Made by a program: the position numbers and the translations under genes
Origin: Candidatus Krumholzibacteriia bacterium
Lineage (GTDB): Bacteria; Krumholzibacteriota; Krumholzibacteriia; JAJRXK01
Reading direction: 5' to 3'
NCBI GenBank assembly: GCA_041484665.1
Contig: JBGPIA010000002.1
Location: 224,001 to 288,000 of the forward strand
Length of the DNA: 64,000 nt
Shown: positions 5,738 through 38,669 of the stretch, piece after piece
Layout: each line of letters begins with the position of its first letter
Position numbering within the stretch: the stretch's first letter is position 1
The notes under the pieces: generated by a model
The model's input: only the letters and a program-made list of their open reading frames with translations
What the model was told of the DNA's origin: nothing
Databases searched by the model: none

Positions 5738-6628
5738 TCAACTCCGGCGTGCGGCGAGGTAGTCGCACAGCGACCGCAGGTGCGCGCTGGCCGCCGGCAA
5801 CCGATCGAGCGCAGCACGCGCGGTGTCCAGCAACCGCCGCATGATCTCTTCGCTCTCGGCGTAACCCAGGCAGGCCACGAAGGTCGGCTTGCCGCGGTCC
5901 TGGCGCGCGTCCTTGCCCATCTCGGCGGCGTGCCCCGTGGCGTCGAGCAGGTCGTCCTTGATCTGGAAGGCCAGGCCCAGATTGCGCGCGTAGTGCGCGG
6001 CCAGCTCCTCCTCGCCCGCGCTGGCCTCGCCCAGGCGCGCGCCCAGCCGCGCGCACGCCACGAACAACGCTCCGGTCTTGTGACTGTGGATGTACTCCAG
6101 GCGCACCAGGTCGCGCTGCTGCGCGGGCAATCGCAGGTCCACGTGCTGTCCGCCGATCATGCCCCGCACGCCGACCGCGTCGGCCAGCAGCGCGGTGGCG
6201 CCCAGCCCGCCGTGGCCTGCGTCGAGGCCGCCCAGCAGCTCGAAGGCGAGCATGAGCTGGGCGTTGGCGGCCAGGATCGCCGTGTCGACACCGAACCGCA
6301 CGTGGCAGCACGGGCGTCCGCGGCGCGTGCGCGCGTCGTCCATGCTGGGCAGGTCGTCCAGGACGAGCGAAGAGGTGTGGATCAGCTCCGCGGCCATCGC
6401 CGCCGCCATCACCTCTGCGGGGCGCGGCCGGCCCACACTCTGCGCCCAGAGCTCCACCACCGCCGGACGCACGCGCTTGCCGCCGGCCAGCAGCGTGTAC
6501 TGCACCGCTTCCAGGAGCTCGGGCGTGTAGGCGTGCTCCAGGCGCGCGACTGCGGCCTGCAGCTGCGGCCCCAGGCGTTCGCCCAGACCGTGCAAGTAGG
6601 CCGACAGCGCCCCTGCCAGGTCAGCCAC
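5738..6628 (-). CDS. Trans-prenyltransferase (polyprenyl diphosphate synthase), CrtE/GGPP-synthase-like
   Basis: GGKRVRP, FARM HTSSLVLDDLPSMDD..RRG, GMIGGQ..D, KTGALF, SARM FQIKDDLLD and GKD...K.T. Start re-assigned to GTG 6628. Confidence 0.93.
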   Translation of the reverse strand: MADLAGALSAYLHGLGERLGPQLQAAVARLEHAYTPELLEAVQYTLLAGGKRVRPAVVELWAQSVGRPRPAEVMAAAMAAELIHTSSLVLDDLPSMDDARTRRGRPCCHVRFGVDTAILAANAQLMLAFELLGGLDAGHGGLGATALLADAVGVRGMIGGQHVDLRLPAQQRDLVRLEYIHSHKTGALFVACARLGARLGEASAGEEELAAHYARNLGLAFQIKDDLLDATGHAAEMGKDARQDRGKPTFVACLGYAESEEIMRRLLDTARAALDRLPAASAHLRSLCDYLAARRS

Positions 6629-7784
6629 GCTGGCCCTCCCCCTCGGACGCGAGCGACCGCAACAGCTGCGCGGTCTGCGCGACCATCCTCTCCCGCGTGA
6701 ACGCCGCCAACAAGCGCTCGTGTCCACGCCGGCCCATGGCGCGGGCCGCTTCCGGCGCGCCGAGCAGCCCGGCCAGCGCTTGCGCCATCGCCCCCGGATC
6801 GCCCGGGGGCACCAGCCGTCCGCTGACGCCTTCCTCGAGCATCTCGCGCAGCGAGCCGACGTCGGTCGCGACCACGGGCAGACACGCGGCCATGGCCTCA
6901 AGAACGCACAGCGGGAAGGTCTCCACCACCGGCCGCGACGCGAGCGCCAGCGCATCCAGGCAGGCCAGGATCGCCGGAACATCGCCGCGCTGCCCGAACC
7001 AGCGCACGCGCTCGCCGACCCCCAGCGCGCTGGCGTGCTCGCGCAGCTCGCCAGCCAGCGCCCCGTCCCCCACCACCGCCAGGTGCGGGGGAGTGGGCCC
7101 GCGCAACTGCGCCAGCGCGGCGAGCAACGAGCGGTGGTCCTTCTCCGGGCGCAGCGCCGCCACGATGCCGATCACGGGACGATCGGCGGGCAGACCGAGG
7201 TGTGCGCGGCGCCGGGCGCGCTCCTCGCCATGGAGCGGCGGTGAGAATGCCGCGGGATCGACTCCGTTGTGGATGACGACCAGACGGGCCGGGTCGACCC
7301 GTTCATGCTCGGCGAGGTAGCGCGCGTGCGTGTGGCTGACGGCGATGACGCGATCGCTCAGCGGCATGAGCAGCCGGTCGGCGCGCGATAGGCTGGGGCG
7401 CCCATCGGCGCGGCCGGTGCGGTGCACGGCGCAGACCTGAGCGCGAACGCCGGCCAGGCGCGCGGCCAACCGTCCATACAGCAGCGCATTGGAGTGGTCG
7501 AGCACGTAGACCACGTCGGCCGCGACGCGCCGCAGGTGGGCGCGCAGGGCCCAAAGCGCGCGTGGGTCGGTCCGCGCAGGGGCCAGCTCGCCGCGCAGCG
7601 CGACACCGCGCGCCTGCAGCGCCTCCCCCACCGGCCCGGGGGCGCGCAGGCAGCCCACGCCCACGTCGATGCCGTGGGCGGGCAGATCGCAGCACAGGGC
7701 CTCGACCACCCGCTCGGACCCGCCGATCACCAGGCTGTTGACGAGGAACTCGACTCGCAGCCGCTCCGGGGAGCGGGGAGTCAG
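6621..7784 (-). CDS. Glycosyltransferase family 4
   Basis: IGGSE, VIHNGVD, EKDH and ETFPLCVLEAMA motifs. Start uncertain (CTG 7784 or ATG 7844). Confidence 0.9.
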   Translation of the reverse strand: MTPRSPERLRVEFLVNSLVIGGSERVVEALCCDLPAHGIDVGVGCLRAPGPVGEALQARGVALRGELAPARTDPRALWALRAHLRRVAADVVYVLDHSNALLYGRLAARLAGVRAQVCAVHRTGRADGRPSLSRADRLLMPLSDRVIAVSHTHARYLAEHERVDPARLVVIHNGVDPAAFSPPLHGEERARRRAHLGLPADRPVIGIVAALRPEKDHRSLLAALAQLRGPTPPHLAVVGDGALAGELREHASALGVGERVRWFGQRGDVPAILACLDALALASRPVVETFPLCVLEAMAACLPVVATDVGSLREMLEEGVSGRLVPPGDPGAMAQALAGLLGAPEAARAMGRRGHERLLAAFTRERMVAQTAQLLRSLASEGEGQRG

Positions 7785-8818
7785 CGCGGGGTCCCCACGC
7801 CGTTGAGGCGGTGCGCCGCGCCGCCTTCCCGGATCGATCGACATGCCGCCTCGAGCACCTCCACCACCTCGAGCCCGCTCCGCCCATCGCTGGACGGCGA
7901 CTTCCCGTCGCGGATGCACTGGATGAAGTGCTCGGCCTCGTTCTTCAAGGGCTCGCTGTCGTCGATGCGGGGCAGGACGATGTCGCCGTACCGGTAGCTG
8001 AGCTGGAACTCGCCGAAGGTGTCGTAGTGCGGAAGTACGTTCACGCCCTTGTCGTAGACCCGCAGCTTCTCCACGTTGGAGACGTCGTCGTAGACGAGCA
8101 TCTTCTTGCTGCCCACCACCGTGAGCTTGCGGATCTTGTTGGGGTCCAGCCAACTCACGTGCAGGTGGGCGGTGACCTTCTCAGGATACTCCATGTGGAC
8201 GAAGGCCACATCCTCGATGCCCGGCTGGACGTACGCCGTGCCCAGGGCGTTGACCCGCACGGGCCCGTGTCCCAGCAGCCAGTTGATGATCGCCACGTCG
8301 TGCGGCGCGAGATCCCACACCACATTGACGTCCTCGCGGAACAGTCCGAGGTTCACCCGCGTGACGTGGATGTAGAAGATCTGCCCCAGCTCTCCCCGGT
8401 CGATCAGCTGCTTGATGTGGTGGATCCCGGAGTTGAACAGGAAGGTGTGGCCGACCATCAGGAAGCGCCGGTTGCGGTCGGCAGCGTCGATCATGCGGCG
8501 GCACTCGTCCACCGAGGAGGCCATGGGCTTCTCGACGAAAACGTGCTTGCCGGCATCCAGAGCCTTGCACGTCAGCTCGGAATGGGTGCACACCGGGGTG
8601 GCGATCACCACGGCCGCGATCTCGGGGTCCTCGAGAATGTCGGCGTAGCGCGTGCTCGTGCGCAGGCTCGGGTAGAGGTTGCGCATATGGGCCAGCCGCT
8701 CTTCGTTGAGGTCGACGGCCCATTTGGTCGCCGCTCCCGGAATCTGTGAGAAATTCCGGACGAGATTCGGGCCCCAGTACCCTACCCCAACGACCCCAAC
8801 CCGAATGGGAGCGCTCAC
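7781..8818 (-). CDS. Gfo/Idh/MocA family oxidoreductase (nucleotide-sugar dehydrogenase type)
   Basis: GVGYWG Rossmann motif, KHVFVEKP and WDLAPHD. Start re-assigned to GTG 8818, which has a GGAGAGG RBS. Confidence 0.93.
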   Translation of the reverse strand: MSAPIRVGVVGVGYWGPNLVRNFSQIPGAATKWAVDLNEERLAHMRNLYPSLRTSTRYADILEDPEIAAVVIATPVCTHSELTCKALDAGKHVFVEKPMASSVDECRRMIDAADRNRRFLMVGHTFLFNSGIHHIKQLIDRGELGQIFYIHVTRVNLGLFREDVNVVWDLAPHDVAIINWLLGHGPVRVNALGTAYVQPGIEDVAFVHMEYPEKVTAHLHVSWLDPNKIRKLTVVGSKKMLVYDDVSNVEKLRVYDKGVNVLPHYDTFGEFQLSYRYGDIVLPRIDDSEPLKNEAEHFIQCIRDGKSPSSDGRSGLEVVEVLEAACRSIREGGAAHRLNGVGTPR

Positions 8819-8867
8819 GTCTGCCTCTCCAGTGGCACTCGTGCCGGGCCCGCGCCCGGCACGAAGC

Positions 8868-9590
8868 TCAGTAGGCCCCTTCACCTCGCAGGAGAACGGG
8901 GAAGGTCTTCAGGATGATCTTGAGGTCCAGGGCCAGGCTCCAGTTGGCGATGTAGTGGAGGTCCAGCATCACCATCTCGTCGAAGGGAACCATGCTCCGG
9001 CCGCTGACCTGCCAGAGTCCGGTCAAACCCGGCTTGGCCTTCAAGCGATCCTTGTGCCACTCTTGGTAGTGCGCGAGCTCGTAGGCGATGGGCGGGCGCG
9101 GACCCACCAGGCTCATCTCGCCGCGCAGGACATTCCAGAACTGCGGCAGCTCGTCGAGGCTCGTCTTGCGCAGAAACGCCCCGAACAAGGTAACGCGCGG
9201 ATCGCGCACCATCTTGTAGGGCCGGCTGTGGTCGCCGTCCATGTGGCCGTTGATGAAACGCTGGGCGAAGTTCCGGTGCACGGCATCATCGCTGTTGTGC
9301 TGCATCGTGCGGAACTTGTAGAACACGAACGGCTTTCCGTCCTTCCCCAGGCGGATCTGCCGGAAGAAGACCGGACCGCGGCTCGTGATCTTCACCATCA
9401 GGGCGATCGCGGCGAGCACGGGGGCGCCGACCGTGTAGATCGTCAACGCGGCGGCGACATCGATGGCGCGCTTGAACGCGAGCTCGACCTGACTGTGGGT
9501 GGGGACGCCGATCCGAAGGGCAAACGTGTCGACAGCGTCCAGGGCTCGTTCGGTGGTGGCAAGGTTCAAGGCAGTCGCGTCTTCCTTCAT
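8868..9590 (-). CDS. Priming phosphoglycosyl transferase (Bac_transf / monotopic PGT)
   Basis: [45 protein letters not shown] and [13 protein letters not shown]. Confidence 0.95.
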
Positions 9591-9721
9591 CTCTGGAGCC
9601 GTCCCTCAGCTGTGAACAACCTGGGTGTCTGGATGGGTTTAACGCCCTTCCACCTCGTCAGCTGAACCAGTCGCTATGTCGGACAACCTGCCTTTCTGCA
9701 GGAAAATCGCTCCACGCTCCC

Positions 9722-10834
9722 CTAACGATCCGCTGCCAACAGCACCTCGCAGACGTGGTCGACCATCTCGGGCTCCATCTCCGCGTACATTGGCAGCGAG
9801 ATGATGTTCGCGCAGATGACCTCGGCCACCGGGAACTGCCCCGGCGAGCCAAGGTGCGCGAAGGCCGGATGGAGGTGGATCGCCCGGGGATAGTGCTCTC
9901 CCCAGCCAATCCCGCTCTCGGTGAGCTGGGCCTTCACGCGCGGCGCCTCGGGATGATTCACGACGAACAGATGGTGGACGGGCTCGGCACCCTCCACGGC
10001 CTGGGGCCAGCGATAGCGGGATCCGGCGAGGAGGTCCCGATACCGGGCGGCGTGTTCGCGCCGCCGCGCGTTCCATCCGTCCAGGTGCGCCAGCTTGACC
10101 CCCAGGACGGCCGCCTGGAGGCTGTCCAGCCGCGCCGTGGTCCCGACGAGGCTGTGGACATTCTTCTCCCGCTGCCCGTGATGGCGCAGGGCCGCCACCT
10201 TGGCCGCGATCTCCGGATCGTCGGTCACCAACGCTCCCGCGTCCCCGAACGCTCCCAGGTTCTTGCCCGGGTAGAAGCTGAACGCTGCGGCCTTGCTCCC
10301 GCTGCCGATACGCCGGCCGTGGAGGCGCGCGCCGTGGGCCTGCGCGGCGTCCTCCAACAGCAGGATCCCGTGCCGCCGCGCCAGAGCGCGCAGCGCCACG
10401 AGGTCGGCGGGAAAACCGTACAGGTGTACCGCCATGACGGCCGCCGTCTTGCGCGTGATGCGCGCCTCGACCGCCGCCGCGTCCATCAGCCAGGTGCGGG
10501 GGTCCACGTCCGCTAGCACGGGAGTGGCGCCCGCCAGCGCGATCGCCTCCACCGTGGCCACGAACGTGTTGGGAACCGTGATGACCTCATCCCCGGGGCC
10601 GATCCCGCACGCCCGTAGCGCCAGCTGCAGCGCGTCGATGCCCGAGCTCACGCCCATGCACTGCCGCGCTTCGCAGAATTCGGCGAAGCGGCTCTCGAAG
10701 GCGGTGGTGGCGGGACCCAGGATGAATGCGTTGCGATCGATGACGGCCCGGATGGCTGCATCGATCTGCGCACGGAGAGGCTCGTTCTGGGCGGCGAGAT
10801 CCAGAAACGGGATCAGCGGGGCTTGTGTCTGCAT
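9722..10834 (-). CDS. DegT/DnrJ/EryC1/StrS PLP-dependent sugar aminotransferase
   Basis: IPFLDL, GIGPGDEVI, EDAAQAHGA and FSFYPGKNLGAFGDAG (PLP lysine). Start re-assigned to ATG 10834. Confidence 0.95.
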   Translation of the reverse strand: MQTQAPLIPFLDLAAQNEPLRAQIDAAIRAVIDRNAFILGPATTAFESRFAEFCEARQCMGVSSGIDALQLALRACGIGPGDEVITVPNTFVATVEAIALAGATPVLADVDPRTWLMDAAAVEARITRKTAAVMAVHLYGFPADLVALRALARRHGILLLEDAAQAHGARLHGRRIGSGSKAAAFSFYPGKNLGAFGDAGALVTDDPEIAAKVAALRHHGQREKNVHSLVGTTARLDSLQAAVLGVKLAHLDGWNARRREHAARYRDLLAGSRYRWPQAVEGAEPVHHLFVVNHPEAPRVKAQLTESGIGWGEHYPRAIHLHPAFAHLGSPGQFPVAEVICANIISLPMYAEMEPEMVDHVCEVLLAADR

Positions 10835-11182
10835 GACCGAGCGAGTATAGCACAGCCCAAATCGCCAATGGAAGGCCGCTTCCAGGCGCGAACCTCTAGG
10901 CCGATCAGAGCGCAACTCCATTGTGCACAAACAGTTGCGGGCAACCTGAGGACGGGCCGCGCGGGCGCCTGCGGGAGTCGGCGCAGCGGCGGCCGCCGGG
11001 GCCGCCCCCGGCGATCGGCGGGGCGTTGCGCGTCTGTCCACTCGGCACCTCCCCTGCTATGGTAACCGTCTGACCACCATACGCCGCGCGCCGTCGACTC
11101 TGCACGCGGCCGCGGCCGTCGCGGCGGCACCGTGGCCCGCGCCCGCGGCGCGGCCACCGTCCTGTAGCGTGCGAGGTCTGCG

Positions 11183-12079
11183 ATGCGCCTGCTGATCACC
11201 GGAGCCCAGGGGATGATGGGGCGCGACCTGCGCGCGCTGGCCGAGGCCGCCGGGCACGACGCGTGGCCGACCGACGTCGCGCGACTGGCGCGCGATCCGC
11301 AGGATCGCCTCGACGTCACCGATCACGCGGCGCTGGAGCACGCCTTCGAGGCGTTCCACCCCGACGCCGTGCTCCATCTGGCGGCGATGACCAACGTGGA
11401 TGACTGCGAGCTTAACCCCGAGCAGGCCTGGCGGGTGAACGCCGTGGGGACGCAGAACGTGGCGCTGCACTGCCGGCAGCGCGCTCTGCCCCTGGTCTAC
11501 ATCTCCACCGGCAGTGTGTTCGACGGCGAGAAGCCCACCCCCTATCACGAGTTCGACGTGCCCAATCCCCAAAGCATCTACAGCCGCAGCAAGTGGCAGG
11601 GGGAGCTCATCGTCCGTGAGCTGTGGCCCCAGCACTACATCGTGCGCGCCGGCTGGATGTTCGGCGGCGGGCCAGAGGACAAGAAGTTCGTGGCCAAGAT
11701 GGTCGACCAGGCCCGGGCGAAGCCCGTGTTACGCGCCGTAGACGACAAGAGCGGGTCGCCGACCTATACGCGCGACATCAGCGCCCGCTGCCTGGAGCTG
11801 CTGGCCACCGGGCGCTTCGGTACCTACCACGCGGCCAACGAAGGGTGCTGCACGCGTTACGAGATGGCGCAGGCGATCGTGGAGTACGCGCGCATCGCCG
11901 GCTGCCGCGTGGACCCGTGCGGCTCCGCGGAGTTCCCGCTGCCCGCCCCGCGTCCGCGGCTGGAGGCGTTGGAGGGGCTGCACGCCCGCCTGATCGGGCT
12001 GCCGCCCATGCGGGGATGGCGGGAAGCGCTGGCGGACTACATCCAGACCGAGCTGCTTCGCGAACCGAGGGGCGCGTGA
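11183..12079 (+). CDS. rfbD: dTDP-4-dehydrorhamnose reductase-like SDR
   Basis: ITGAQGMMG, HLAAMTNVD.CE, YIST.SVFDG, Y..SK..GE, GSPTY and PAPRP motifs. Confidence 0.85.
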   Translation: MRLLITGAQGMMGRDLRALAEAAGHDAWPTDVARLARDPQDRLDVTDHAALEHAFEAFHPDAVLHLAAMTNVDDCELNPEQAWRVNAVGTQNVALHCRQRALPLVYISTGSVFDGEKPTPYHEFDVPNPQSIYSRSKWQGELIVRELWPQHYIVRAGWMFGGGPEDKKFVAKMVDQARAKPVLRAVDDKSGSPTYTRDISARCLELLATGRFGTYHAANEGCCTRYEMAQAIVEYARIAGCRVDPCGSAEFPLPAPRPRLEALEGLHARLIGLPPMRGWREALADYIQTELLREPRGA

Positions 12080-12112: not shown

Positions 12113-12634
12113 CTACTTCTGCTCTTCGGTCCGGATGGGCTTGAGCGTCTTGTAGAACTCGGCCGGGGTCATGGAGAGGATCGGGCCGCTGCACTTCGCA
12201 ACCGGCTTCGCTGGGTTGCCCTGCACCATGGTCAGCGGCGGAACGGAGCGCGTAACGACACTGCCGGCCATCACTACTGCGCCGTACCCGATCGTCACAT
12301 TCGGCAGGATGATAGCGCCCGGTCCGATGAAGGCCTCGTCCTCGATGCGCACCGAGATGGCGTCCTCCGGGTGGCCCTTGACGTCGGCCTTGATTGCCCC
12401 CTGGAAGTGGGCCAGGATCATCGACCGGATCCCGACGTCCACACCGTTGCCAATGGAGACCAGGAAGGGACGCGACGTCTCGATCAGCGCGTCGGTGCCG
12501 ATGAAGACGCGCTCGCCGATCTTCACCCCGCGCCGGCGGTGCATCCACACACGAACGGTCCTGGCGCCCGGAGAATACCGCACCAGGATCTGCAACACGC
12601 GATTCTTGAGCGCCCATAGCGCGCCACGTCTCAT
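12113..12634 (-). CDS. Left-handed beta-helix (hexapeptide) acyltransferase
   Basis: GVKIGERVFIG, IGNGVDVG and VRIEDEAFIGPGAIILPNVTIG...GNPAK repeats. Confidence 0.88.
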   Translation of the reverse strand: MRRGALWALKNRVLQILVRYSPGARTVRVWMHRRRGVKIGERVFIGTDALIETSRPFLVSIGNGVDVGIRSMILAHFQGAIKADVKGHPEDAISVRIEDEAFIGPGAIILPNVTIGYGAVVMAGSVVTRSVPPLTMVQGNPAKPVAKCSGPILSMTPAEFYKTLKPIRTEEQK

Positions 12635-12682
12635 TGGCCCATCCGGTCCTGGTTCCCGTTTAATGCCACCGATGCGACCACG

Positions 12683-12970
12683 TTACGCGCCGCCGCTGGT
12701 CGCCGCCCGGCTCTTTCCCTCAACGTAACGACAGAGGGGGCCGAGGATCGTCAGCTCCTCGGCGTCCAGATCCTCGAAATCGATCGCGAGTCCAAACCGA
12801 TGCTCGATGGCCGAGATCATCTCAAGGATCCCGAGCGAATCGATGACCCCTTCGGTGAGGAGATCGAAATCGTCGGGCACTTGCGCGGGCTCGAGACCCT
12901 TCGCGGCGAGTGAGCTCGCGAATCTCTCCAGCAAGAGGGCTCGGACCGCTTCCGCCGTGATGACACTCAT
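12683..12970 (-). CDS. Acyl/aminoacyl carrier protein (DltC-like)
   Basis: 95 aa, acidic, with the GVIDSLG phosphopantetheine-attachment motif; ATGA-coupled to the adenylation gene. Confidence 0.9.
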   Translation of the reverse strand: MSVITAEAVRALLLERFASSLAAKGLEPAQVPDDFDLLTEGVIDSLGILEMISAIEHRFGLAIDFEDLDAEELTILGPLCRYVEGKSRAATSGGA

Positions 12971-14592
12971 GCCATCTCCTCCAACAGCTTGAACAGGGCG
13001 AACTGGTCGATCTTCCCGTGGTGCGTCAGCGGCAGCTCGGGAAGGAAGTGGAGCCGACGCGGGACCATGTAGTCCGGGAGGCGCGCGGCGAGCTTCCGAC
13101 GCAGCAGCTCCGGGTCGGCCCCGACGGTGCCCAGGAACGCCTCCACCCCACCCGCGGCCCCGCTGGCGCCGCGCGGCCAGCCGACGGCCAGCACGGAGTC
13201 GACGCCCGACGCCTCGCGGAGGGCGGCTTCCACTTCGCCGAGTTCGACGCGGTGCCCGTGGATCTGCAATTGGCGATCCAACCGCCCGAGATAGAGGATC
13301 GGGCCGTGGTCGTGCGGCCTGCGCACCCGATCACCCGTCCGATAGAAGATGACATCCTCCCCGGGCAAGGTGATGAACGACGCCGCCGTCCGCTCGGGGT
13401 CCCGCCAGTAGCCGAGGGTGACCTGGGGCCCGGACAGGAGCAGCTCGCCGGACTCACCCGCGGCGACCTCGCGCAGACCCTCATCGACAACCCGCGTAGT
13501 CATCCCGGCGTTGGGGTATCCGATCGGAACGACCCCCTGTTCGCATTCCTCCGGCGATCGCTCCGGATCCCAACGATAGCGCAGGCAGGTGCAGAGCACC
13601 TCGGTCGGGCCGTAGAGATTCTCCACGGCGGAATTGCTGGCTGCCTGCGCCCATGACCGCGCCACCTCCAGCGGCAGCGCCTCGCCTCCGAAGAGGCTGT
13701 GCCGCAGCGTTGGATAGCGATTCGGCTTGAGAATGCCCAGGCGCCGCATGAACACGCCGGTGGAGGGCACCGAGAACCAGATGGTGATGCGCGAGTCCCG
13801 GATGAACTTTCCGGGCTTGATCAGCTCCTTCTGGGTCGGGACGCACAAGCAAGCTCCGCGCTCCCACCCCACCCACAGGTCGAAGATCGAGCCGTCGAAC
13901 GTCAATTCGAACGTCTGCGAGAATCGGTCCTGCTCCGTGACGGCGTAGTGGTCGACGACCGCGTCGATGTAGGCGAGGGCGTTGCGGTGCGCCGCCATCA
14001 CCGCTTTGGGGATGCCGGTGCTCCCCGAGGTGAAGATGAGATAGGCCACCGCGTTCGCTTCGACCGGCACCGGGGCCCAATCGCGCGGGACGTCGAGGTC
14101 CGCGCGACCCAGGATCCGGTGCGTGGGCCACTCACCCGCGAGCTCGGCCACGTCCTCCTGCTCCGGCAGCAGCAGGACCATCGGCTCCTTGAGTCGAGGG
14201 ATCAGCGAGCGCAGATGGGGCACCGATTCCGGATCGACCACCATGCAGCGCGCCCCGGAGCGCTCGAGCATCATCAGCGTGCGCTCCGGCGGCAGCAGGC
14301 GGCTGAGCGACACGTAGCCGTGCCCACGTAGGAGAGCGCCGAGGATACCCGTGTAGGCCGTGGGCGTGCGATAGGCGAGGACCGCGGTCAGCGGGGCACT
14401 ACCCGGCGACGGGTGGACCCGGTCGAGCGTCGCCGCGAGCGAGAACGCACGCTCGTACATTTGGCGGTAACTAAGCGTCACACCGGCCACCTGAAGGGCC
14501 GGACGATCAGGAAAGCGAGCGGCGGAGCGAAGGAAGCCGGAGCGAAGGGTTCGCGTGCTCTCAACCATCGCGCTCGACGTCTCCGACGTCAT
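12967..14592 (-). CDS. Stand-alone amino-acid adenylation enzyme (DltA-like)
   Basis: A3 YLIFTSGSTGIPK, A4 FD.S, A5 NLYGPTE, A7 YRTGD, A8 GR.D.Q..I.G.RVELGEVE and A10 LP...GKID. No condensation domain. Start ATG 14592 or 14568. Confidence 0.92.
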   Translation of the reverse strand: MTSETSSAMVESTRTLRSGFLRSAARFPDRPALQVAGVTLSYRQMYERAFSLAATLDRVHPSPGSAPLTAVLAYRTPTAYTGILGALLRGHGYVSLSRLLPPERTLMMLERSGARCMVVDPESVPHLRSLIPRLKEPMVLLLPEQEDVAELAGEWPTHRILGRADLDVPRDWAPVPVEANAVAYLIFTSGSTGIPKAVMAAHRNALAYIDAVVDHYAVTEQDRFSQTFELTFDGSIFDLWVGWERGACLCVPTQKELIKPGKFIRDSRITIWFSVPSTGVFMRRLGILKPNRYPTLRHSLFGGEALPLEVARSWAQAASNSAVENLYGPTEVLCTCLRYRWDPERSPEECEQGVVPIGYPNAGMTTRVVDEGLREVAAGESGELLLSGPQVTLGYWRDPERTAASFITLPGEDVIFYRTGDRVRRPHDHGPILYLGRLDRQLQIHGHRVELGEVEAALREASGVDSVLAVGWPRGASGAAGGVEAFLGTVGADPELLRRKLAARLPDYMVPRRLHFLPELPLTHHGKIDQFALFKLLEEMA

Positions 14593-14892
14593 CGAGTGGA
14601 GACCGTTGCTGGATTTGGACTTGCGGCCTCGCCGCGGCGCGCGCCCCCGCAGAACGCGCGCCCGCGCGCCATTGCGCGGAATAAGAAACCTACCACAGCT
14701 TGGGAAGCCTGGCCATCCCGCGGGTCGCACACGGGCCGCGCGCACCACGCTGGTCGCCAACGCGGGCGATCTCCCGCTGCGCGACCGGCTCCGGATCACC
14801 GGTTCGCATACACCTGATGCTTGCCCGTGGTTGAGCGGCGGCGAGTCGTGCGCCCAAGGTCCGCGAGCGCGACTGGTGCCGGGTCACCTCCG

Positions 14893-16179
14893 TCATCGGT
14901 TGGAGTAGAGCTGGTCGCGCCGCATGCGCGCCACGGTGGCCAGAAAACGCGGCACGAACGCCGCCAGCCGCAGGCCATTGCGCGGATGCCGCAGGTAGGC
15001 CGCCACGTCGAAGTACAGCGGGTGCATCACGGGCACAAACACCCCCGCGACCTCTTCGGCGCGGTGCAGCTGCTCGATGAACGCCGCAGCCAGCTCCTCC
15101 GCGAAGTCCGGGCCCAACGCCACGCTGATGTCGGCGAAGTGCTGCCCGATGCTCAGCGTCCGGCGCAGCGCGCCGTCGCCGGGCAAGTGCAATGGATGGT
15201 AGTACCGGTTGCGGTACATGGTGTCGTAGCGGAAGCCCGCCTGCTCCACCGCGCGCCACGTATTGGGTGTGGTGTTGGTGCGCAGCTCGCCGCCGTGCAT
15301 GCAGATGCCGGATGCCTCGGCGCCGACCAGCTCTTCCAAGAGCGCCTTCTCCCCGGCCGCAGCGCGCAGCTCGCTGCCGAACCGCCGCTCTGCCGAAGTC
15401 ACGAACTCACCGTGCAGCGCCAGCTCGTGGCCGCCTACCACTCGGGCATACGCCCGGAGCTCCGCCGCGCCGTAGAAGTACCCCAGCGGGCGCAGGTAGG
15501 CCGTGCTGCGGACGCCGTAGCGGTCCTCCAGCGCGTGGATCCCCGCCATGTTCTGGATCGCCGCGTCCACGTCGTAGCGCACCGAAAGCGCCACCGCGTA
15601 GGGTCTGCCACCGCGCTGCGGCAACGGCCACAGGCGCAGGTCCGGCAGCCCGCAGCGGCGGTGCCCCTCGGCGAGGAGCCCGCGCATGCGCGACAGCGGC
15701 TCCTCGTCGAAGCGCTGGTGCCGCGTGGCGCTTTCGCGCAGGGCGGTCAGCAGCGGGTCCAGACGCGCGGCGGGCAGCACTGGCGTGGCGCCCGGCGCCG
15801 CGCACCGCACGTGGCCGTAGCCGAGGTGGCCGAGGATTTCGCGCAGCAGCGGCTCGTCGGCCACGCGCGGATCGTAGGAGGGCGCGGCCGCCGACGGCCG
15901 TGCCACCGGGAGCTCGAAGGGCGGGACGAGCACGCGGGCCGAGTCGACCTCCACGGCGGCCTCCGCCAGCGCGCATTCGACGGCCAGACGCCCGCCATCG
16001 ATCCGCCGCAGTTGCACGCTCGCCTGCTGGCGTTGCTCCCACCAGCGGGCGACCTCGCGCTGGGATACGGCCCAGACATTCCCGTGGACGCGCACGTGCT
16101 CCAGCAGCGCTGTGTAGGCCGGCCGGTCCTTCATGAGGGTATGGCGCCGGATCGCGCGCTGGATCAAGCCGAGGTTCAT
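14893..16179 (-). CDS. Polysaccharide deacetylase-like (CE4/NodB-related) protein
   Basis: RYDVD, GVRSTAY, HELALHG, G..MHG, GF.YDT and MHP motifs. Start re-assigned to ATG 16179. Confidence 0.65.
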   Translation of the reverse strand: MNLGLIQRAIRRHTLMKDRPAYTALLEHVRVHGNVWAVSQREVARWWEQRQQASVQLRRIDGGRLAVECALAEAAVEVDSARVLVPPFELPVARPSAAAPSYDPRVADEPLLREILGHLGYGHVRCAAPGATPVLPAARLDPLLTALRESATRHQRFDEEPLSRMRGLLAEGHRRCGLPDLRLWPLPQRGGRPYAVALSVRYDVDAAIQNMAGIHALEDRYGVRSTAYLRPLGYFYGAAELRAYARVVGGHELALHGEFVTSAERRFGSELRAAAGEKALLEELVGAEASGICMHGGELRTNTTPNTWRAVEQAGFRYDTMYRNRYYHPLHLPGDGALRRTLSIGQHFADISVALGPDFAEELAAAFIEQLHRAEEVAGVFVPVMHPLYFDVAAYLRHPRNGLRLAAFVPRFLATVARMRRDQLYSNR

Positions 16180-18673: not shown

Positions 18674-19804
18674 CTAGCGGTTGTAGAACTCCGGGAACTG
18701 ACCGTAGTGGCGGCTCTCCGCGGGCTGGGCGACACCCTTCTCGCGGTGCTCCAAGTACGACCGGCGTTCCACGACCTTGTTGTCGTGGTGGACGTGTCCA
18801 TAGTCGACGTAGCGCTGGAACGGGATGGGTCGCTTGAAGATGACGCGCAGCTTGTTGGAGACCACCCAAGCCAGCGGCTTGGCGCGCGGCAACGAAGCGA
18901 AGCGCTCATTGCGCATGGCCGTCTTGGCGGAGGCGACCATCCAGCAGTTTTGCGTGCAGGCGGCGACCTCCGCGCGGGCCGCCACCGCCTTCTCGCCGCG
19001 CATGATCTCCTCCCAGCTCTGCTTGGACAGGTTGCCCATGAGCAGGTCGGGGCGGACGTTGCAGGCGTACACGTCGCTCCACGGATCGACGAACGCGAAC
19101 ATCGTGCCGGCGGTGCACGGGATCAGGCGGTCGTGGCCGAGGATCTTGGCGATCAGGCCCAGGTTCAGGTAGCCACGGAACCAGTTCTTGATGGACCAGG
19201 ATTGCATCATCTCCGTGACCAGGTCCTCAACACGCCGCGCAACGCGTACGCGGTCGTACATGTAGTTGTCGTCCTTGTGGAACTGGAAGCCGTTGTGCAA
19301 CGCCGAGGTCGCCAGCTCCACGCCCACGCGGCGGCTGAGGCGGTACATCTCCACGATCTGGTCGACGTTCTCGTCCTGGAAGGTCGTGGCGAACCCCAGG
19401 TCGGTACCCCGCAGCGCCACCAGACGCTCCATCGCCGCCATCTTCGTCTTGAACCCGTCCTTCTCACCGCGGATGCGGTCGTTGGTCTCCTCGAGCCCCT
19501 CGATGCTGATGCGGATCTTCACGTTGGGGTACTTGAGCAGGACCGGCTCGAGCTTGTCGACGTGCAGCCCGTTGGTGGAGATCTCGAGTGTGTGCGTCTT
19601 GGGATACAGCAGATCCACGATCTCCATCAGGTCGCGGCGCAGGGTAGGCTCACCCCCGGTGATGTTCAGGTGATCGAATCCGCCGGGCAGCTTGCTCAGC
19701 GTCTCCAGGCTCACCTCGAACCGCGGATTGGTCGGGTTCTTCCAGATGTAGCACATGGAGCAGGCGGAGTCGCACCGGTAGGTCAGGATCACCGACAAGT
19801 CCAC
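18674..19804 (-). CDS. Radical SAM protein with a SPASM/Twitch C-terminal domain
   Basis: CDSACSMC (CxxxCxxC), ITGGEP, ISTNG, ISIEG....D.IRG, and CTAG...VDP...VYAC...C..NCW. Start GTG 19804 (GGAG RBS). Confidence 0.93.
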   Translation of the reverse strand: MDLSVILTYRCDSACSMCYIWKNPTNPRFEVSLETLSKLPGGFDHLNITGGEPTLRRDLMEIVDLLYPKTHTLEISTNGLHVDKLEPVLLKYPNVKIRISIEGLEETNDRIRGEKDGFKTKMAAMERLVALRGTDLGFATTFQDENVDQIVEMYRLSRRVGVELATSALHNGFQFHKDDNYMYDRVRVARRVEDLVTEMMQSWSIKNWFRGYLNLGLIAKILGHDRLIPCTAGTMFAFVDPWSDVYACNVRPDLLMGNLSKQSWEEIMRGEKAVAARAEVAACTQNCWMVASAKTAMRNERFASLPRAKPLAWVVSNKLRVIFKRPIPFQRYVDYGHVHHDNKVVERRSYLEHREKGVAQPAESRHYGQFPEFYNR

Positions 19805-19959
19805 GGCATCTCCGTCTCTAGCTCCAAGGGGCACGGGTCCCCGGGGGCGTCGGGTGTCTCGCTCATGTCGGCTGGAGTCGCGGACTCGGCGTGCTCCGGG
19901 CGCCTCCGAGGGTGGAGTGCCGTGGGACCGGAGCGCCGCTCACCGCTCGTACGCACTTC

Positions 19960-25580: not shown

Positions 25581-26813
25581 TCAGGAGGTCCCAGCGCGGG
25601 CCTCCTGGTACAGCTGCATGATGCGCTCCAGATGCTCCTGGGGCGCGTGACGCCGCTCGACGAAGCGGCGCGCCTCCTTCCCCATCGCCGCGCACCGCTG
25701 GGGGCTCTCCATCATCGCCGCCAGTCCGCCGGCCCAGGCGTCCACATCGCCCGCTGGCAGCAGGCGCCCGGTGCGCTCCTCCTGCACCAGCTCGGGCAAT
25801 CCTCCCAGCCGCGAGGCCAGCACGGGCTTGCCCGAGGCGAACGCCTCGAGCACCACCAGAGGACAGTTCTCGTAGCACGCGCTGGGCATGACCAGCAGGC
25901 GCGCCCCGCGGTACAGCGCGCGCAGCCGCTCGCCGCCGCAATGTCCCAGGAACTGCACGTTCGACCAGCCTTCACGCGCCGCGAGCTGTTGCAAGGGAGT
26001 CTCCAGCTCGCCGCTGCCGGCGATCTTCAGCGGCACGCGCGCCCGCGCTGCCGCCCGCAACAACGTTTCCACGCCCTTCTCGGGATCGAGCCGCCCGACG
26101 AACAAAGCAAAGCCATCGTCGCCCTGCGCCGGCGAGTGCGCGTCCAGATCGACCGGGTTGGGCACGACTTCGATGCGCGCCGGGCGCAGGCCGTGCTCCA
26201 GGATCTTGTCGCGCAGGAACTGACTGGGGGCGATCAGCAGCCGCGCACGCTCGTAGACCCGCCAGATCCGGTGCAGGTAGAGCTCGACGGTGACGATGGC
26301 ACTGGCCCCCAGGCTCCCCCGCTTGCAACGCGTGCGCAGCGCATGGTGGAACCGGCCGTGGCGGCACAGCTCGCAGATCGCCCCCTCGCGCAGCATGCGC
26401 GTGGTGGGGCAGACCGACTTGAGGTCGTGCAGCGTCCACACCACCGGCACATTGCGCCGGTAGAGCTCCAAGACGACCGAGGCCGTCAGGTGGTGCATCA
26501 CGGAGTGCAAGTGGGCCAGCTCGACGGGCTGCTCGGCCAATAGCGCCGCCAGCCGCCGCCGCGCCTGGCGGTTGTAGATCGAGGTGGTCAGGACCTTGAG
26601 CGCCCCGCGCACCCCGCGCTGCGCCATCAGGCTGGGGTAATCCACCTCGTCGGCGAACCAGCGCTCGTGCTGCGAGGGAAGATTGCGCGCCTCGCGCATG
26701 GCGAAGGGAACTACGCGGTGGCCCGCTGCGGTCAGGCGCTCCGAAAGATCCAGGGCGTGGCGGCTATCGCCGCCGCGCGCGTAATGATAGGTGTTGACCA
26801 TCAGGATGTTCAT
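25581..26813 (-). CDS. Glycosyltransferase family 4
   Basis: MNILMVN..Y.RGG, WTLHD...CP, FVGRL..EKG and YENCPLVVLEA. Start ATG 26813, overlapping the upstream stop. Confidence 0.92.
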   Translation of the reverse strand: MNILMVNTYHYARGGDSRHALDLSERLTAAGHRVVPFAMREARNLPSQHERWFADEVDYPSLMAQRGVRGALKVLTTSIYNRQARRRLAALLAEQPVELAHLHSVMHHLTASVVLELYRRNVPVVWTLHDLKSVCPTTRMLREGAICELCRHGRFHHALRTRCKRGSLGASAIVTVELYLHRIWRVYERARLLIAPSQFLRDKILEHGLRPARIEVVPNPVDLDAHSPAQGDDGFALFVGRLDPEKGVETLLRAAARARVPLKIAGSGELETPLQQLAAREGWSNVQFLGHCGGERLRALYRGARLLVMPSACYENCPLVVLEAFASGKPVLASRLGGLPELVQEERTGRLLPAGDVDAWAGGLAAMMESPQRCAAMGKEARRFVERRHAPQEHLERIMQLYQEARAGTS

Positions 26814-28321
26814 CGAGCGGAGGTCCGCAGGGTGGCAGCCGAGCGCATCCACGGCGACCGCGGCAGGCCCAGCCCGCGCAGGACCAAGGGCGCGATGTCG
26901 GCCAGGCCGGGCGGGTCGGCGAGCTCCTCGCCGGAGTCGCCGGCCAGGTCCAGCGACGTGTAGAGCACGCCGTCCAGCTTGTGGCCGCCGGAGATCTTGC
27001 GATGCGTGGTGTTGGTGGCCACGACGTCGCCGAACAGGTCCCACCCGGTGCCATATTCGCTCTCCAGCAGGAACAGCAGGTCTGGGTAGCGCTCCAGGCA
27101 GGCCCCCGGGCCCATGGCCTCCTCGCGCCGGCGGATCCAGCGGAAGACCGGAGCTCCCGTGCGCGGGTCGCGCACGTCGCGCAGCGCCGCGATCACTGCG
27201 TCGCATACGGCATCGTAGACTTGGCCCTGCGCCTCGACGCGCGCGCGGTCGACCGCCACGCCACCGCAGGCGCTTGTCCCTGCGAAATGCGGCGTGTAGA
27301 CCGCGGTGGCGCCATCCTCCACCAGGAACGAGGACTTCTTGAGCTCGCGCGCCCGCGGCACGAGCTTGGCGATGCGGTACGTCACGTCGGCCATGTCGAG
27401 GCGGTCGAGCGCGCTCATCGCGGCGCGCTTGGCCTTCTGCAGCAGGCGGCGCGGGTGCAGTGGGTTGCGTCCTCGGGCCCGTGTCTTCAGCCAGCCCGCG
27501 CGGCGCAGCACCTCGTTGACGTTGACCACTTTCGTGCAACGGCGGCCGTGGCCGTGGTCGCTGAGCACCATCACGTCGGCGCCCGGTCCGGCAGCTTCGA
27601 TCGTCTCACCCACGATGCGGTCGAACAGGCGGTAGAATTCCAGGATTACCGGCTGGTGCACGGTGCGCCCGGGGTACGTTGGATCCTGCTCGTCGTGATA
27701 CCGCCAGAAGAAATGCTCGATGCGATCCAGCGTCAGGTATGTGGTGAAGAACAGGTCCCACGGACCGTGGTCTCGAAGCAGCGTGAGCGAAAACCGGTGC
27801 TGCGCCAGCGTGTAGTCCAGGGTCGTGCGTCCGAACAGGCCGAGGTTCGCCTTGGTGGGGAAGTCAACGATCCCACCCATGCTCGGCAGCGGGAGCTGCG
27901 CTGCGAGCTCTGGCGGCTCCACGCGCTCGCTCTGATCCTTCACAAAGACAGGTCCGCTCGCCATCACGCCATTGACCGGCCACGGCGGGAAGGCCATGAA
28001 GGGATTCACGATCCCCACGCGCCGCCCTGCGGCGGACGCTACGTCCCAGAAGGTCCTTCCGCGAAACACCGAGGTGTCGATGGCGAAGTCCTTGTGGTCC
28101 TTCTTGTAGTAGTCGATCGCGTCGAGGATCCCATGCTCCACGGGTGGGATCCCCGTGAAGATGGTGATCCACGAGGGGATCGAGTCGGTCGGGAAAACCG
28201 AGCGCAGCGGCCCGCCGTAGCCGCGCGGGCGCAATGCCCGCAAAACCGGCAGCTCGCCCAGGTGCGCGTCGACGAAGTCGGCGTCCATGCCGTCGATGCC
28301 GATGATCACAAGCCTGCGCAT
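26810..28321 (-). CDS. Alkaline-phosphatase-superfamily protein (type I phosphodiesterase/nucleotide pyrophosphatase-like), cytoplasmic
   Basis: IIGIDG, S.FP..S.PSW..I.TG..P..HG, DRIEHFFW, LSDHG and GGH..DG; no signal peptide. ATG 28321 with AAGGAG RBS. Confidence 0.85.
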   Translation of the reverse strand: MRRLVIIGIDGMDADFVDAHLGELPVLRALRPRGYGGPLRSVFPTDSIPSWITIFTGIPPVEHGILDAIDYYKKDHKDFAIDTSVFRGRTFWDVASAAGRRVGIVNPFMAFPPWPVNGVMASGPVFVKDQSERVEPPELAAQLPLPSMGGIVDFPTKANLGLFGRTTLDYTLAQHRFSLTLLRDHGPWDLFFTTYLTLDRIEHFFWRYHDEQDPTYPGRTVHQPVILEFYRLFDRIVGETIEAAGPGADVMVLSDHGHGRRCTKVVNVNEVLRRAGWLKTRARGRNPLHPRRLLQKAKRAAMSALDRLDMADVTYRIAKLVPRARELKKSSFLVEDGATAVYTPHFAGTSACGGVAVDRARVEAQGQVYDAVCDAVIAALRDVRDPRTGAPVFRWIRRREEAMGPGACLERYPDLLFLLESEYGTGWDLFGDVVATNTTHRKISGGHKLDGVLYTSLDLAGDSGEELADPPGLADIAPLVLRGLGLPRSPWMRSAATLRTSAR

Positions 28322-28382
28322 GTCGCTCCTTGCGGCGCCAAGCTCGTCGCCGTTCATCACGAAGCGGCGGGGCCGCAGTCTA

Positions 28383-29090
28383 TCACACCGTCGCCGGGCC
28401 GCCTCCCGGGCCCGCAGCGGCAATCAGGACCCGGGCCACGTCGCGGGCCACCTCCTCGCGGGGCCGGCCGGCGTCGACCACGCCCAGCCCGAGACGGCGC
28501 GCCAGCTCCAGATACAACGACCGGCGGTCCTGTAGGTACGCCAGCGGGGTCCCATCGTTCTTTCGCTGATACCCGGCCTCGGCGTCCAGATCGAGCACGA
28601 CGCCGCCCCGCGGCCGCGGAAAGAGCCGGTTCAAGGGATGGCCCCTCAAGCGCTCTACCCCGCCCTCACCCTCGCCGAAGTTCATCGCCAGATCGATCCA
28701 GACGTCGGGCAGGTAGCGGTCGCACACGACGAAACGCCCGCGCAGCAACGCCGGTCCCAACCGCCACCAGACCTGGGGCAGGTACTCCAGGAGCACGGCC
28801 GCCGTCCACAGCGCACGTGCCCACTGGCGGCGGAAGATGCGCTGCTTCCCCCCGCGAAAGTCCCGGTAGCCAGCATCGTCGCTGGGTCGCGCGGAGCCCG
28901 GGGCGCCGCCCCGGGCGAGCCCCCGCCGCGCCAGCGCCATCAGCGGCGCGGTGAGCTTGGGCTCCCAGCGCGCCCAACGGTAGATCCAGCGCGCGTCCTG
29001 GCCGCGCGCGCTGCGCACGAATGCCTCGGCCTGCGTGGTCTTCCCCGACCCGTCAATCCCGCCGACGTAGAGCAGCCGCCCGCGCGCCAT
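28383..29090 (-). CDS. Thymidylate-kinase-like P-loop kinase
   Basis: GIDGSGKTT Walker A, VVCDRY..D, P.P.....LD and RK lid. Start ATG 29090, coupled to the upstream GT4 stop. Confidence 0.82.
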   Translation of the reverse strand: MARGRLLYVGGIDGSGKTTQAEAFVRSARGQDARWIYRWARWEPKLTAPLMALARRGLARGGAPGSARPSDDAGYRDFRGGKQRIFRRQWARALWTAAVLLEYLPQVWWRLGPALLRGRFVVCDRYLPDVWIDLAMNFGEGEGGVERLRGHPLNRLFPRPRGGVVLDLDAEAGYQRKNDGTPLAYLQDRRSLYLELARRLGLGVVDAGRPREEVARDVARVLIAAAGPGGGPATV

Positions 29091-30130
29091 CAGTCTGCTG
29101 CCCCCTGGACGCCAGCCAGGAGCCTCGCCACCGTGGCATCCCACCCGAAGCGCTGCACGAGCGCGCGCGTGGCGCAGCGCTGAGCCTCGACGGCCGCCAC
29201 CGCGCCGGCCAAGGGCGCCGTGTCCTGCAGAAATACCAGCCCGTCGCCCTCCAGGAAATGGTCGCCCAGTGCCCCGAAGCGGGTTGTCACCACGCGCAGC
29301 CCGCACGCCATCGCCTCCAGGACCGAGAGCGGGAACGCGATGCTGCCCTCGTCGTCGCGCACCGGGAAGAGGTAGACGTCGGCCGCTTGGTAGAGCTGCT
29401 CGACCTGTGGGAAGAACTCCCGGCGCAGGTCCACGCCCGCGCTGCGCAGCTGTTCCACCAGCGCCGGGTCGACGGAGGTGGCCGTGCTGGCCGCCATCAC
29501 CACGTGCGTGGACGGCAGGCGCGCCGCCTCGCACAGGCGCTCCAGGCCGCGGTGCGCGGACAGATGCCCGACGTGGAGCACCACCCGCCGGTCCTGTGGC
29601 CAGCCGAGCATCTGGCGCAGCCGATGTCGGGCGTCGGATCCGACGGGCGCGAAGCGCTGCAGGTCCACACCAGCATCCACGAGAGAGACCGCGAACCCCA
29701 GCCGCCGATACTGCTCCAGGCTGGCCCGCGACAGCACGACCAGGCGGGCCGGACGCACCCAGGGCAGTAGCCACCGCGCAAGGCGGCCGTAGCCGCGGTG
29801 CTGCAGGCTGATCAGCGCCACCTTGGCCCGCGGCAGCGCGCGCTCCAGGCGCTTGCAGCGCAGCAGGGCATTGAACGTGGCGCACGCCGACGGGACGTAC
29901 AGTGCGAGCTCGGGCGCCAGCGTCGCAAGCTCGTGGCGCAGTGCTGGGGTCACGAGCCCCTTGCCCATGGCCACGCGCACCGCGGGCAGTCCGCTGGGCG
30001 CCTGCCCTCTCTCGTACAGGGCGATGAGCTGGTGGTCGCGGGCCAAGCGCTCCACCAGGTGGGTCACGAACTTGAGCAGCCCCTCATCGGCACGCTCCGA
30101 CCATCGTTCCGAGATGACGGCGATCCTCAC
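29090..30130 (-). CDS. Glycosyltransferase family 4
   Basis: GVDL.RF.P, LHVGH...RG and ADVYLFP...PLSVLEAMACG. Start GTG 30130 (GTGA overlap with asnB copy 2). Confidence 0.88.
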   Translation of the reverse strand: MRIAVISERWSERADEGLLKFVTHLVERLARDHQLIALYERGQAPSGLPAVRVAMGKGLVTPALRHELATLAPELALYVPSACATFNALLRCKRLERALPRAKVALISLQHRGYGRLARWLLPWVRPARLVVLSRASLEQYRRLGFAVSLVDAGVDLQRFAPVGSDARHRLRQMLGWPQDRRVVLHVGHLSAHRGLERLCEAARLPSTHVVMAASTATSVDPALVEQLRSAGVDLRREFFPQVEQLYQAADVYLFPVRDDEGSIAFPLSVLEAMACGLRVVTTRFGALGDHFLEGDGLVFLQDTAPLAGAVAAVEAQRCATRALVQRFGWDATVARLLAGVQGAAD

Positions 30131-38646: not shown

Positions 38647-38669
38647 AGGCGCCCCTCCACGGTCTGCCG

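Follow-up and report, generated by a model that had tools for sequence, protein, structure and literature searches.

A conserved adenylation domain, carrier protein and left-handed beta-helix acyltransferase cassette with a re-tuned substrate pocket in a polysaccharide locus of a Krumholzibacteriia bacterium

The genome of Candidatus Krumholzibacteriia bacterium (assembly GCA_041484665.1) carries, in the 64,000-nucleotide stretch of contig JBGPIA010000002.1 that we analyzed (positions 224,001 to 288,000, hereafter the window), three minus-strand genes at 12113-14592 coding for a stand-alone adenylation domain (A-domain), an acyl carrier protein (ACP) and a left-handed beta-helix (LbH) acyltransferase. 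We take this cassette to be genuine and conserved, and to represent a variant of carrier-dependent glycan acylation not described before; in this copy the pocket of the A-domain is re-tuned. Open reading frame calling and Pfam matches gave the same three genes as a preliminary description made from the letters alone:

12967-14592, minus strand: A-domain, 541 aa from the ATG at 14592 (an alternative ATG lies at 14568), with AMP-binding (E = 8.5e-65) and AMP-binding_C matches
12683-12970, minus strand: ACP, 95 aa, with a PP-binding match (Pfam)
12113-12634, minus strand: LbH acyltransferase, 173 aa, with a Hexapep match (Pfam)

The start codon of the ACP gene overlaps the stop codon of the A-domain gene as ATGA, and a GGAGG ribosome site lies upstream of the ACP; we found no promoter-like site. 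Around the cassette lies an extensive polysaccharide locus of the Wzy type, which encodes Wza, Wzz, Wzc-like, Wzx and Wzy proteins, many glycosyltransferases, two AsnB-type amidotransferases and an ExeA-type ATPase. Wza, together with an LpxA-like gene read by eye elsewhere on the contig (C2), is consistent with a diderm host, whose genome (G000) is 93.65% complete. Contigs from two further runs (X5, 13020-15602; X6, 13263-14211) carry identical pocket codons with no differing letter, so the pocket residues described below are not an assembly error.

Sequence and model together place the A-domain among the amino-acid adenylation (ANL) enzymes: it has the fold, the P-loop and the catalytic Asp and Lys, with Asp233, TSGSTG and Lys527 (equivalents of Asp235, the P-loop and Lys517) intact and invariant in the alignment. 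Its best solved relatives among PDB sequences are VinM (E = 1e-86) and IdnL7 (E = 2e-77), followed also by AlmE, and the top Foldseek matches of its AlphaFold model (pLDDT 93.2) are VinM-VinL (8K4R) and AlmE (4OXI), with a TM-score of 0.86 each. Against the DltA models it reaches 210 bits (TIGR01734, cut-off 560) and 220 bits (NF003417, cut-off 476), and against TIGR01733 it reaches 308 bits, slightly below the cut-off of 317. By these measures it appears nearer to VinM, IdnL7 and AlmE than to DltA; the label DltA-like given to it earlier is loose, as the DltA scores fall far below their cut-offs. A single-protein query of the genome collection with this A-domain returned one distant locus.

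The pocket is where this enzyme departs from its family. We reproduced the code proposed in the preliminary description, D-G-F-F-L-G-L-C-T-K, checking its positions on alignments with AlmE and IdnL7 and using the GrsA numbering given in an excerpt of PMC11253843. The residues that matter most are encoded as follows:

13891-13893, minus strand: GGC codon of Gly234 (GrsA position 236; Leu248 in AlmE, Cys217 in IdnL7)
13687-13689, minus strand: codon of Gly302 (GrsA position 301; Cys316 in AlmE, Cys269 in DltA, Ala285 in IdnL7)
13588-13596, minus strand: codons of Leu333-Cys334-Thr335 (GrsA positions 329-331; Thr-Ile-Ala in the family)

Leu248 and Cys316 gate the selectivity of AlmE, as established by mutagenesis, and have Leu198 and Cys269 as their DltA counterparts (PMC11253843, in excerpt). 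Both steric gates are Gly in the window enzyme, which bears out the earlier claim of a pocket not made for D-Ala. We collected the closest 185 homologs, the top 119 of which are 53-61% identical to it, and found a modal code of DLFFLCLIAK (105/185); position 236 is Leu in 159 and position 301 Cys in 160 of them, and neither is Gly in any. These modal gates are those of AlmE and DltA, which makes Gly or D-Ala the apparent default substrate of the family. The next positions are just as unusual, with Leu333 (329) and Cys334 (330) present in 0/185 homologs and Thr335 (331) in one. Residues found in at most one homolog occupy four of eight pocket columns, as against 12 of 295 other conserved columns (Fisher p = 3e-4, in a test chosen after the data were seen). 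The floor of the pocket, formed by Phe237, Phe273, Leu300 and Leu326, remains bulky. With Gly at both gates over such a floor, the enzyme probably takes an L-amino acid bigger than Gly, and it is safest to describe its pocket as opened, shallow and non-polar.

Two known codes bear on which amino acid that may be. The first six letters (DGFFLG) agree, as had been claimed, with the bacitracin Ile code DGFFLGVVYK, as printed in an excerpt of PMC2866473, and seven of the ten positions are shared overall. IdnL7, with the code D-C-F-F-L-A-L-I-T followed by K, shares seven of ten too, Thr318 among them, and by alignment it is the nearer relative of the two; all three of its differences shrink the side chain in the window enzyme, where Gly replaces both Cys and Ala and Cys replaces Ile. 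Of the earlier proposal, a pocket other than that for D-Ala or Gly stands, but the call for Ile, or for any hydrophobic residue, is insecure, as the code fits IdnL7, which takes Gly, L-Ala and L-Ser, equally well, and the aliphatic selectivity of A-domains is described as hard to read from the code (PMC11253843, in excerpt). By our own estimate, a substrate other than Gly or D-Ala only is quite likely. A short aliphatic or beta-branched residue (Val, Ile or 2-aminobutyrate) falls just short of an even prospect, Ala, Ser, Thr or Cys would be somewhat unlikely, and an alpha,alpha-disubstituted amino acid would be improbable, though conceivable by analogy with FmoA3, where a small pocket residue lets an alpha-methyl residue in (PMC11253843, in excerpt).

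Relatives from the same phylum share part of this pocket. Gly301 is found in seven of eight, the eighth being canonical, with the codes DGFFTGGCMK (three genomes), DGLCMGVCVK, DGIFLGLVEK, DAVHLGLVMK and DPLNIGLIV (frameshifted), and the full-length A-domains of metagenome LbH loci have the canonical code in eight of nine cases. Trees, which took 85 and 30 of the ~205 available sequences, nest the window A-domain among canonical (DLFFLCLIAK) enzymes, and a tree built without the pocket columns gives three state changes for the opened pocket. We considered independent origins of the opened pocket, but approximately unbiased (AU) tests fail to reject a single clade of Gly301 forms (p 0.39-0.51), and convergence is not claimed.

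The second body of evidence is the linkage of LbH to enzymes that load a carrier. At E <= 1e-100 the A-domain occurs in 9 of 208 phylum genomes, the source genome included, and the order A-domain, ACP, LbH is kept in all eight others (in G092 the LbH gene is cut by the contig end), so a survey of the triad, suggested in the preliminary description, confirms its co-occurrence. The LbH clade itself is present in 19 of the 208 genomes, accompanied in 10 by a cassette-type ACP and in six by FkbH, with no loader seen in three; in the six FkbH loci, FkbH and an ACP replace A-domain and ACP, the ACP being seen in five. Among metagenomes, for which we took the best 80 of 472 confirmed LbH loci, an ACP or loader lies within 1.45 kb of LbH in 29 of the 33 fully flanked loci and in 52 of all 80, whereas none of 21 control LbH loci of this phylum has one; the profiles used for detection derive from in-clade loci, which are thereby favoured over the controls, and kin loci are not independent. 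The 80 include L097, with a split LbH, and contig-edge loci, most of which drop out of the 33, and one source-genome control (C11) that lacked an LbH match was excluded.

The loaders in the metagenome loci comprise FkbH (23), the A-domain family of the window, TIGR03098-like ligases and single chains joining an A-domain, a carrier (T) domain and LbH. Five such A-T-LbH proteins were found (L031:7616-10048, L038:2369-4774, L039:5571-7976, L040:7110-9506 and L048:8120-10588), all in polysaccharide loci and three followed by a methyltransferase-family gene. The A-domain of the one examined, from L031, is oxalate-CoA-ligase-like (E = 4e-125, the next family at 9e-62), which suggests oxalyl decoration of a glycan; because oxalyl offers no amine or hydroxyl to acetylate, a transferase role fits this LbH, as it would for each of the other cargoes. 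The preliminary description had left two routes open, a cytoplasmic one from aminoacyl-ACP through LbH and a periplasmic one through an MBOAT, and it had allowed that LbH might prove unlinked in other genomes. Instead, LbH is tied to ACP loaders across genomes, and for this reason we favor the cytoplasmic route, on the triad in eight of eight relatives, the loader linkage and the fusions. We consider it fairly probable, from linkage and fusions, that LbH draws its donor from the ACP.

A few loci show other arrangements. In L027:5693-10507, two A-domains (DLAFLCIIAK and DPYQLGLINK) flank a single ACP fused to DUF192, with LbH following, possibly a dipeptidyl-ACP route by analogy with VinM. In L166 (G088:C124:4086-8251), the CE4 gene described below is followed by an inverted and more distant A-domain, whose pocket reads by eye as ~D-F-H-S-L-S-H-V-M-K, and by ACP and LbH; upstream remains a stub of the usual A-domain gene, and the arrangement looks like a loader replacement. 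In the cassette of L020 (G054:C5:197500-201200), frameshifts interrupt the A-domain gene as well as the CE4 gene, through decay or assembly error.

As for the LbH protein, its clade has invariant Arg12, Arg28, His32, Arg35 and His76 (His76 in 55/55), and His76 aligns with the His region of maltose acetyltransferases. By sequence it is a short protein resembling maltose and galactoside acetyltransferases (MAT/GAT), and the earlier analogy with LpxA and LpxD holds for function only. Its match to TIGR02353 over residues 16-142 (E = 2e-13), far below the cut-off, is a point of likeness to the Pls/PosA synthetases taken up below. A predicted complex of the ACP with the LbH trimer gives weak support to the pairing, at an ipSAE of 0.47 against 0.01 for the best control, where 116 of 157 solved pairs and 2 of 215 mismatched ones attained the mark used, 18 of these solved pairs and both mismatches at 0.60 or below. 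The runs agree in at least 85% of contacts and partner pLDDT is at least 74; a solved LpxD-ACP complex exists and may bias this prediction.

Four further features of the locus enter the argument, the first of which, directly upstream of the cassette, had been missed in the preliminary description:

14893-16179, minus strand: CE4/NodB-fold protein (predicted structure, without a Pfam match)
60167-60556, minus strand: AcpS (family profile)
37603-40097, minus strand: MBOAT with an SGNH-like neighbour, the MBOAT itself at 38670-40097
7781-11041, minus strand: Gfo/Idh/MocA oxidoreductase, priming sugar transferase and DegT-family aminotransferase (Pfam)

The model of the 14893-16179 product (pLDDT 93.2) indicates a NodB-type barrel. 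VIA-align gives Z = 14.9 both to WbmS (3HFT, rmsd 4.1, 202 aligned) and to PplD (6DQ3, rmsd 3.5, 201 aligned) and 14.0 to ArnD, and the top 10 structural rows are all CE4-type (Foldseek E = 2e-08). Its conserved residues are a DVD motif (Asp203/Asp205), His256, Glu258, His295 and His386, with the usual HxxxH spacing not kept. The protein looks circularly permuted: over its first 90 residues it matches the C-terminal portions of other proteins, and from residue 5-12 on it aligns to PplD, IcaB and PgaB. The gene occurs in 20 of 208 phylum genomes, 16 of them among the 19 with LbH, and mostly adjoins the cassette. In metagenome loci, a different family of ~590 aa takes this place, in 45 clustered loci (including L043:10519-12294) and usually right after LbH; it lies within 1.45 kb of LbH in 38 of the 80 loci, and its aligned motifs DD, HGxDH and HH would make it CE4-like. 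For this family we found no PDB, Pfam or NCBIfam match, with Atlas scores below 0.9, and profile comparison with the CE4 family of the window was not significant (probability 4.3%). No signal peptide was seen by eye in either family. Open frames of 674 aa had hinted at an LbH-CE4 fusion, which we rejected as the genes are separate. The simplest link of the CE4-fold protein to the cassette would be a predicted deacetylase activity that frees an amine ahead of re-acylation.

The ACP is acidic (17 D/E, 7 K/R), and its Ser45, in a GVIDSLG motif, is invariant in 21 cassette ACPs. It scores 21-24 bits against the DltC models, whose cut-offs are 52-68; the carrier gene is nonetheless present and coupled to that of the A-domain. 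AcpS and the MBOAT both lie in the locus, as had been noted. The queries used turned up no phosphopantetheinyl transferase in the genome other than AcpS, so the position of AcpS in the locus says little; it is the probable activator of this ACP. The source genome also has a second stand-alone A-domain with an ACP (L021, G000:C1:173213-175093, and L007); this A-domain has a motif, HAPFHFDLS, resembling that of prolyl-carrier ligases such as PltF, and in the relative G046 an acyl-CoA dehydrogenase follows the pair. Such a pair may make pyrrolyl- or other oxidised aminoacyl-ACP.

Taken together, we propose that LbH aminoacylates a building block of the surface polysaccharide in the cytoplasm in an ACP-dependent manner, a mechanism that, as a whole, we judge evenly balanced between right and wrong. 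AcpS would make the holo-ACP, by established chemistry and in a presumed pairing; the A-domain, given its fold, motifs and gene coupling, would then adenylate an alpha-amino acid and load it onto Ser45, the substrate being an L-amino acid larger than Gly admitted through Gly/Gly gates over a bulky floor. An LbH trimer, as linkage and fusions suggest, would accept the aminoacyl moiety carried by the ACP, His76 acting as the base, and transfer it to a sugar linked to a nucleotide or lipid, at an amine or a hydroxyl. The Gfo/DegT pair is a possible source of an amino-sugar acceptor; the best solved relatives of the DegT-family aminotransferase are sugar 3-aminotransferases such as QdtB and WbpE. 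The weakest step, plausible though somewhat doubtful, is that the CE4-fold partner first removes an N-acetyl group and frees the acceptor amine, as LpxC does before LpxD. A broader version, which we advance tentatively and regard as leaning to the unlikely side, would make the LbH clade a general ACP-dependent sugar acyltransferase of a plug-in system with swapped loaders (A-domains whose pockets diversify, FkbH to supply glyceryl, or A-T fusions of the oxalate-ligase kind), in which CE4 strips an N-acetyl group for replacement, here by a branched-chain or alpha,alpha-disubstituted amino acid on a surface polysaccharide.

Several observations weigh against the proposed mechanism. The closest solved relatives of LbH are acetyl-CoA enzymes (DapH-type, maltose and galactoside acetyltransferases), whose C-terminal GNPA-type motif it keeps; it scores 31 bits against an LpxA cut-off of 226 and, with 173 aa, is too short for the helical C-terminal domain of LpxA and LpxD, which is ACP-docking. 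Four of the 33 flanked metagenome loci have no ACP or loader within 1.45 kb, and in the phylum genomes G012 (99% complete) and G032 (95%) LbH and CE4 persist with neither an ACP nor a loader close by. Searches of these two genomes found no gene of the A-domain family and no FkbH, the FkbH search having matched in no control genome either, and their LbH proteins are more divergent and set among housekeeping genes. G095 and G097 have the CE4 gene without LbH, in polysaccharide loci, and a WbpD-like LbH is encoded elsewhere in the source genome (C1), so the LbH of the cassette need not serve the DegT product. LbH might then be an acetyl-CoA acetyltransferase that caps the ACP cargo, as N-acetyl-aminoacyl-ACP, or a sugar, with another protein such as a CE4-fold transacylase moving the group, in keeping with the CE4-like gene close to LbH in 38 of 80 metagenome loci. 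We hold this unlikely, as the same LbH is fused behind an oxalate-ligase-like A-domain and carrier, with nothing there to acetylate, and the CE4 gene is missing from the G008 contig and from several A-domain-linked metagenome loci, some of them cut by contig ends; moreover, we know of no CE4 transacylase.

The A-domain raises doubts of its own. Its code matches those of Ile and IdnL7 equally, its floor residues are as in the family, and the trees nest it among canonical enzymes, all of which would suit a pathway otherwise as proposed in which the cargo remains a small amino acid (Gly, D- or L-Ala), the selectivity being relaxed and the altered pocket a product of tolerated drift. However, the changes cluster in the pocket, every difference from IdnL7 shrinks a side chain, and Gly301 recurs in relatives with different codes, and we find this alternative decidedly unlikely. 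The enzyme also deviates at 19 of 185 family-conserved columns (homolog mean 4.5, maximum 17), including Lys443Gln and the A10 loop, and together with the two frameshifted genes in the related G054 cassette this could point to a decaying, inactive A-domain whose pocket has lost constraint. Such decay is improbable: the frame is intact, third-position GC content (0.86) is like that of the neighbours, the catalytic Asp, P-loop and Lys are kept in a confident model, Gln443 and the His preceding the catalytic GK are also found in G006 and G008, and other runs carry the same sequence. Finally, aminoacyl-ACP could feed the MBOAT and its SGNH-like neighbour for a periplasmic modification, as DltC feeds DltB and DltD, since the pair lies in the same locus, 23 kb from the cassette, and the MBOAT matches the DltB model (E = 4.6e-46, 158 bits, cut-off 375). 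This is the periplasmic branch of the preliminary description, and we consider it highly improbable. We found no MBOAT in any of the 80 metagenome loci (590 kb) or in in-clade phylum loci, and a Pfam search of five triad genomes found none in three (G054, 96% complete, G087 and G093) and a copy on another contig in two. The protein ends in FLYFQF, a fused FXYXXF motif of the PatA/AlgI type, and PatA uses acetyl-CoA (PMC12148441, in excerpt, which also describes FXYXXF as the fused shuttle motif of PatA-type enzymes). Of the claimed MBOAT/DltD-like pair, the MBOAT is there, but its neighbour has no DltD or other informative family match, and the MBOAT is best read as a separate O-acetylation module.

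Turning to the rest of the locus, the Gfo/Idh/MocA, priming transferase and DegT genes are not conserved parts of the cassette: of 89 related loci, only 4-5 have any one of them, five in the case of Gfo and of DegT. The idea that LbH stands in for WbpD beside Gfo and DegT is weakened by the WbpD-like gene on C1 and by L029, L031 and L095, which hold both kinds. Between the cassette and the DegT gene lies an RmlD-like gene on the plus strand (11183-12079), convergent with LbH; we did not find it in the 89 related loci. Other unusual residents of the locus are a polyprenyl synthetase (5738-6982), a radical SAM/SPASM protein (18674-19834), two phosphodiesterase-family proteins (26810-28423 and 28383-29885) and a thymidylate-kinase-like protein (49791-51389).

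Among known systems, AlmEFG of Vibrio cholerae, which puts glycine on lipid A, likewise modifies the envelope of a diderm by means of a stand-alone A-domain (TM-score 0.86) and a carrier of its own. Its gates Leu248/Cys316 are kept by the modal family code and are Gly234/Gly302 in the window copy, and its setting differs, as the transferase here is LbH, in a Wzy-type polysaccharide locus with a CE4-fold partner. AlmG is a lipid A-type acyltransferase, and no such family was seen among the 60 window ORFs scanned. The macrolactam adenylation enzymes VinM (8K4R) and IdnL7 (6AKD) are the closest solved relatives by sequence and structure, but of the IdnL7 triad Cys217/Ala285/Thr318 only Thr is kept (Gly/Gly/Thr) and there is no polyketide context. 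Enzymes of this type form an amide on an aminoacyl-ACP, and for such a route the window locus has no second loader. Dlt resembles the cassette in an A-domain gene directly followed by that of a small acidic carrier; it differs in that the window proteins fall below the DltA and DltC cut-offs, Gly replaces Leu198 and Cys269 of DltA, and no DltB, DltD or DltX is linked. With LpxA and LpxD the likeness is that LbH is proposed to move an ACP-bound group to a sugar amine or hydroxyl; the donors of these enzymes, and of the WfpG/WfpD pair predicted for the Flavobacterium psychrophilum O-polysaccharide, are fatty acyl chains, unlike here (PMC6519341, in excerpt, where WfpG is only predicted). The nearest hint that an LbH fold accepts aminoacyl-carrier donors is Pls/PosA, whose C-terminal domain is modelled as three packed LbH units accepting aminoacyl from a carrier domain (PMC10522769, in excerpt); that LbH assignment is itself a model, and these are membrane-bound polymerases making peptides. 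By analogy, then, loading would proceed as in AlmEF and DltAC and transfer as in LpxD and the predicted WfpG, with the cassette belonging to none of these families by its scores and gene content. A literature search that covered few subscription papers found no paper on the cassette and no description of a route that deacetylates and then aminoacylates.

That bacterial polysaccharides bear amino-acid and small-acyl groups is well known from chemistry, but few of the enzymes responsible are known. Among carrier-based envelope systems, those that have been characterised (Dlt and AlmEFG) handle D-Ala or Gly only and use MBOAT or lipid A-type transferases. If the proposed mechanism is true, a carrier can hand aminoacyl, glyceryl or oxalyl groups to a small soluble LbH protein, and the side group of the glycan would be set by a variable part, the pocket of the A-domain, much as the pockets of nonribosomal peptide synthetases set peptide sequence. 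All four cassette proteins are small and look soluble, and the natural Leu/Cys and Gly/Gly pairs at ~60% identity lend themselves to testing the two-gate model of selectivity in AlmE and DltA.

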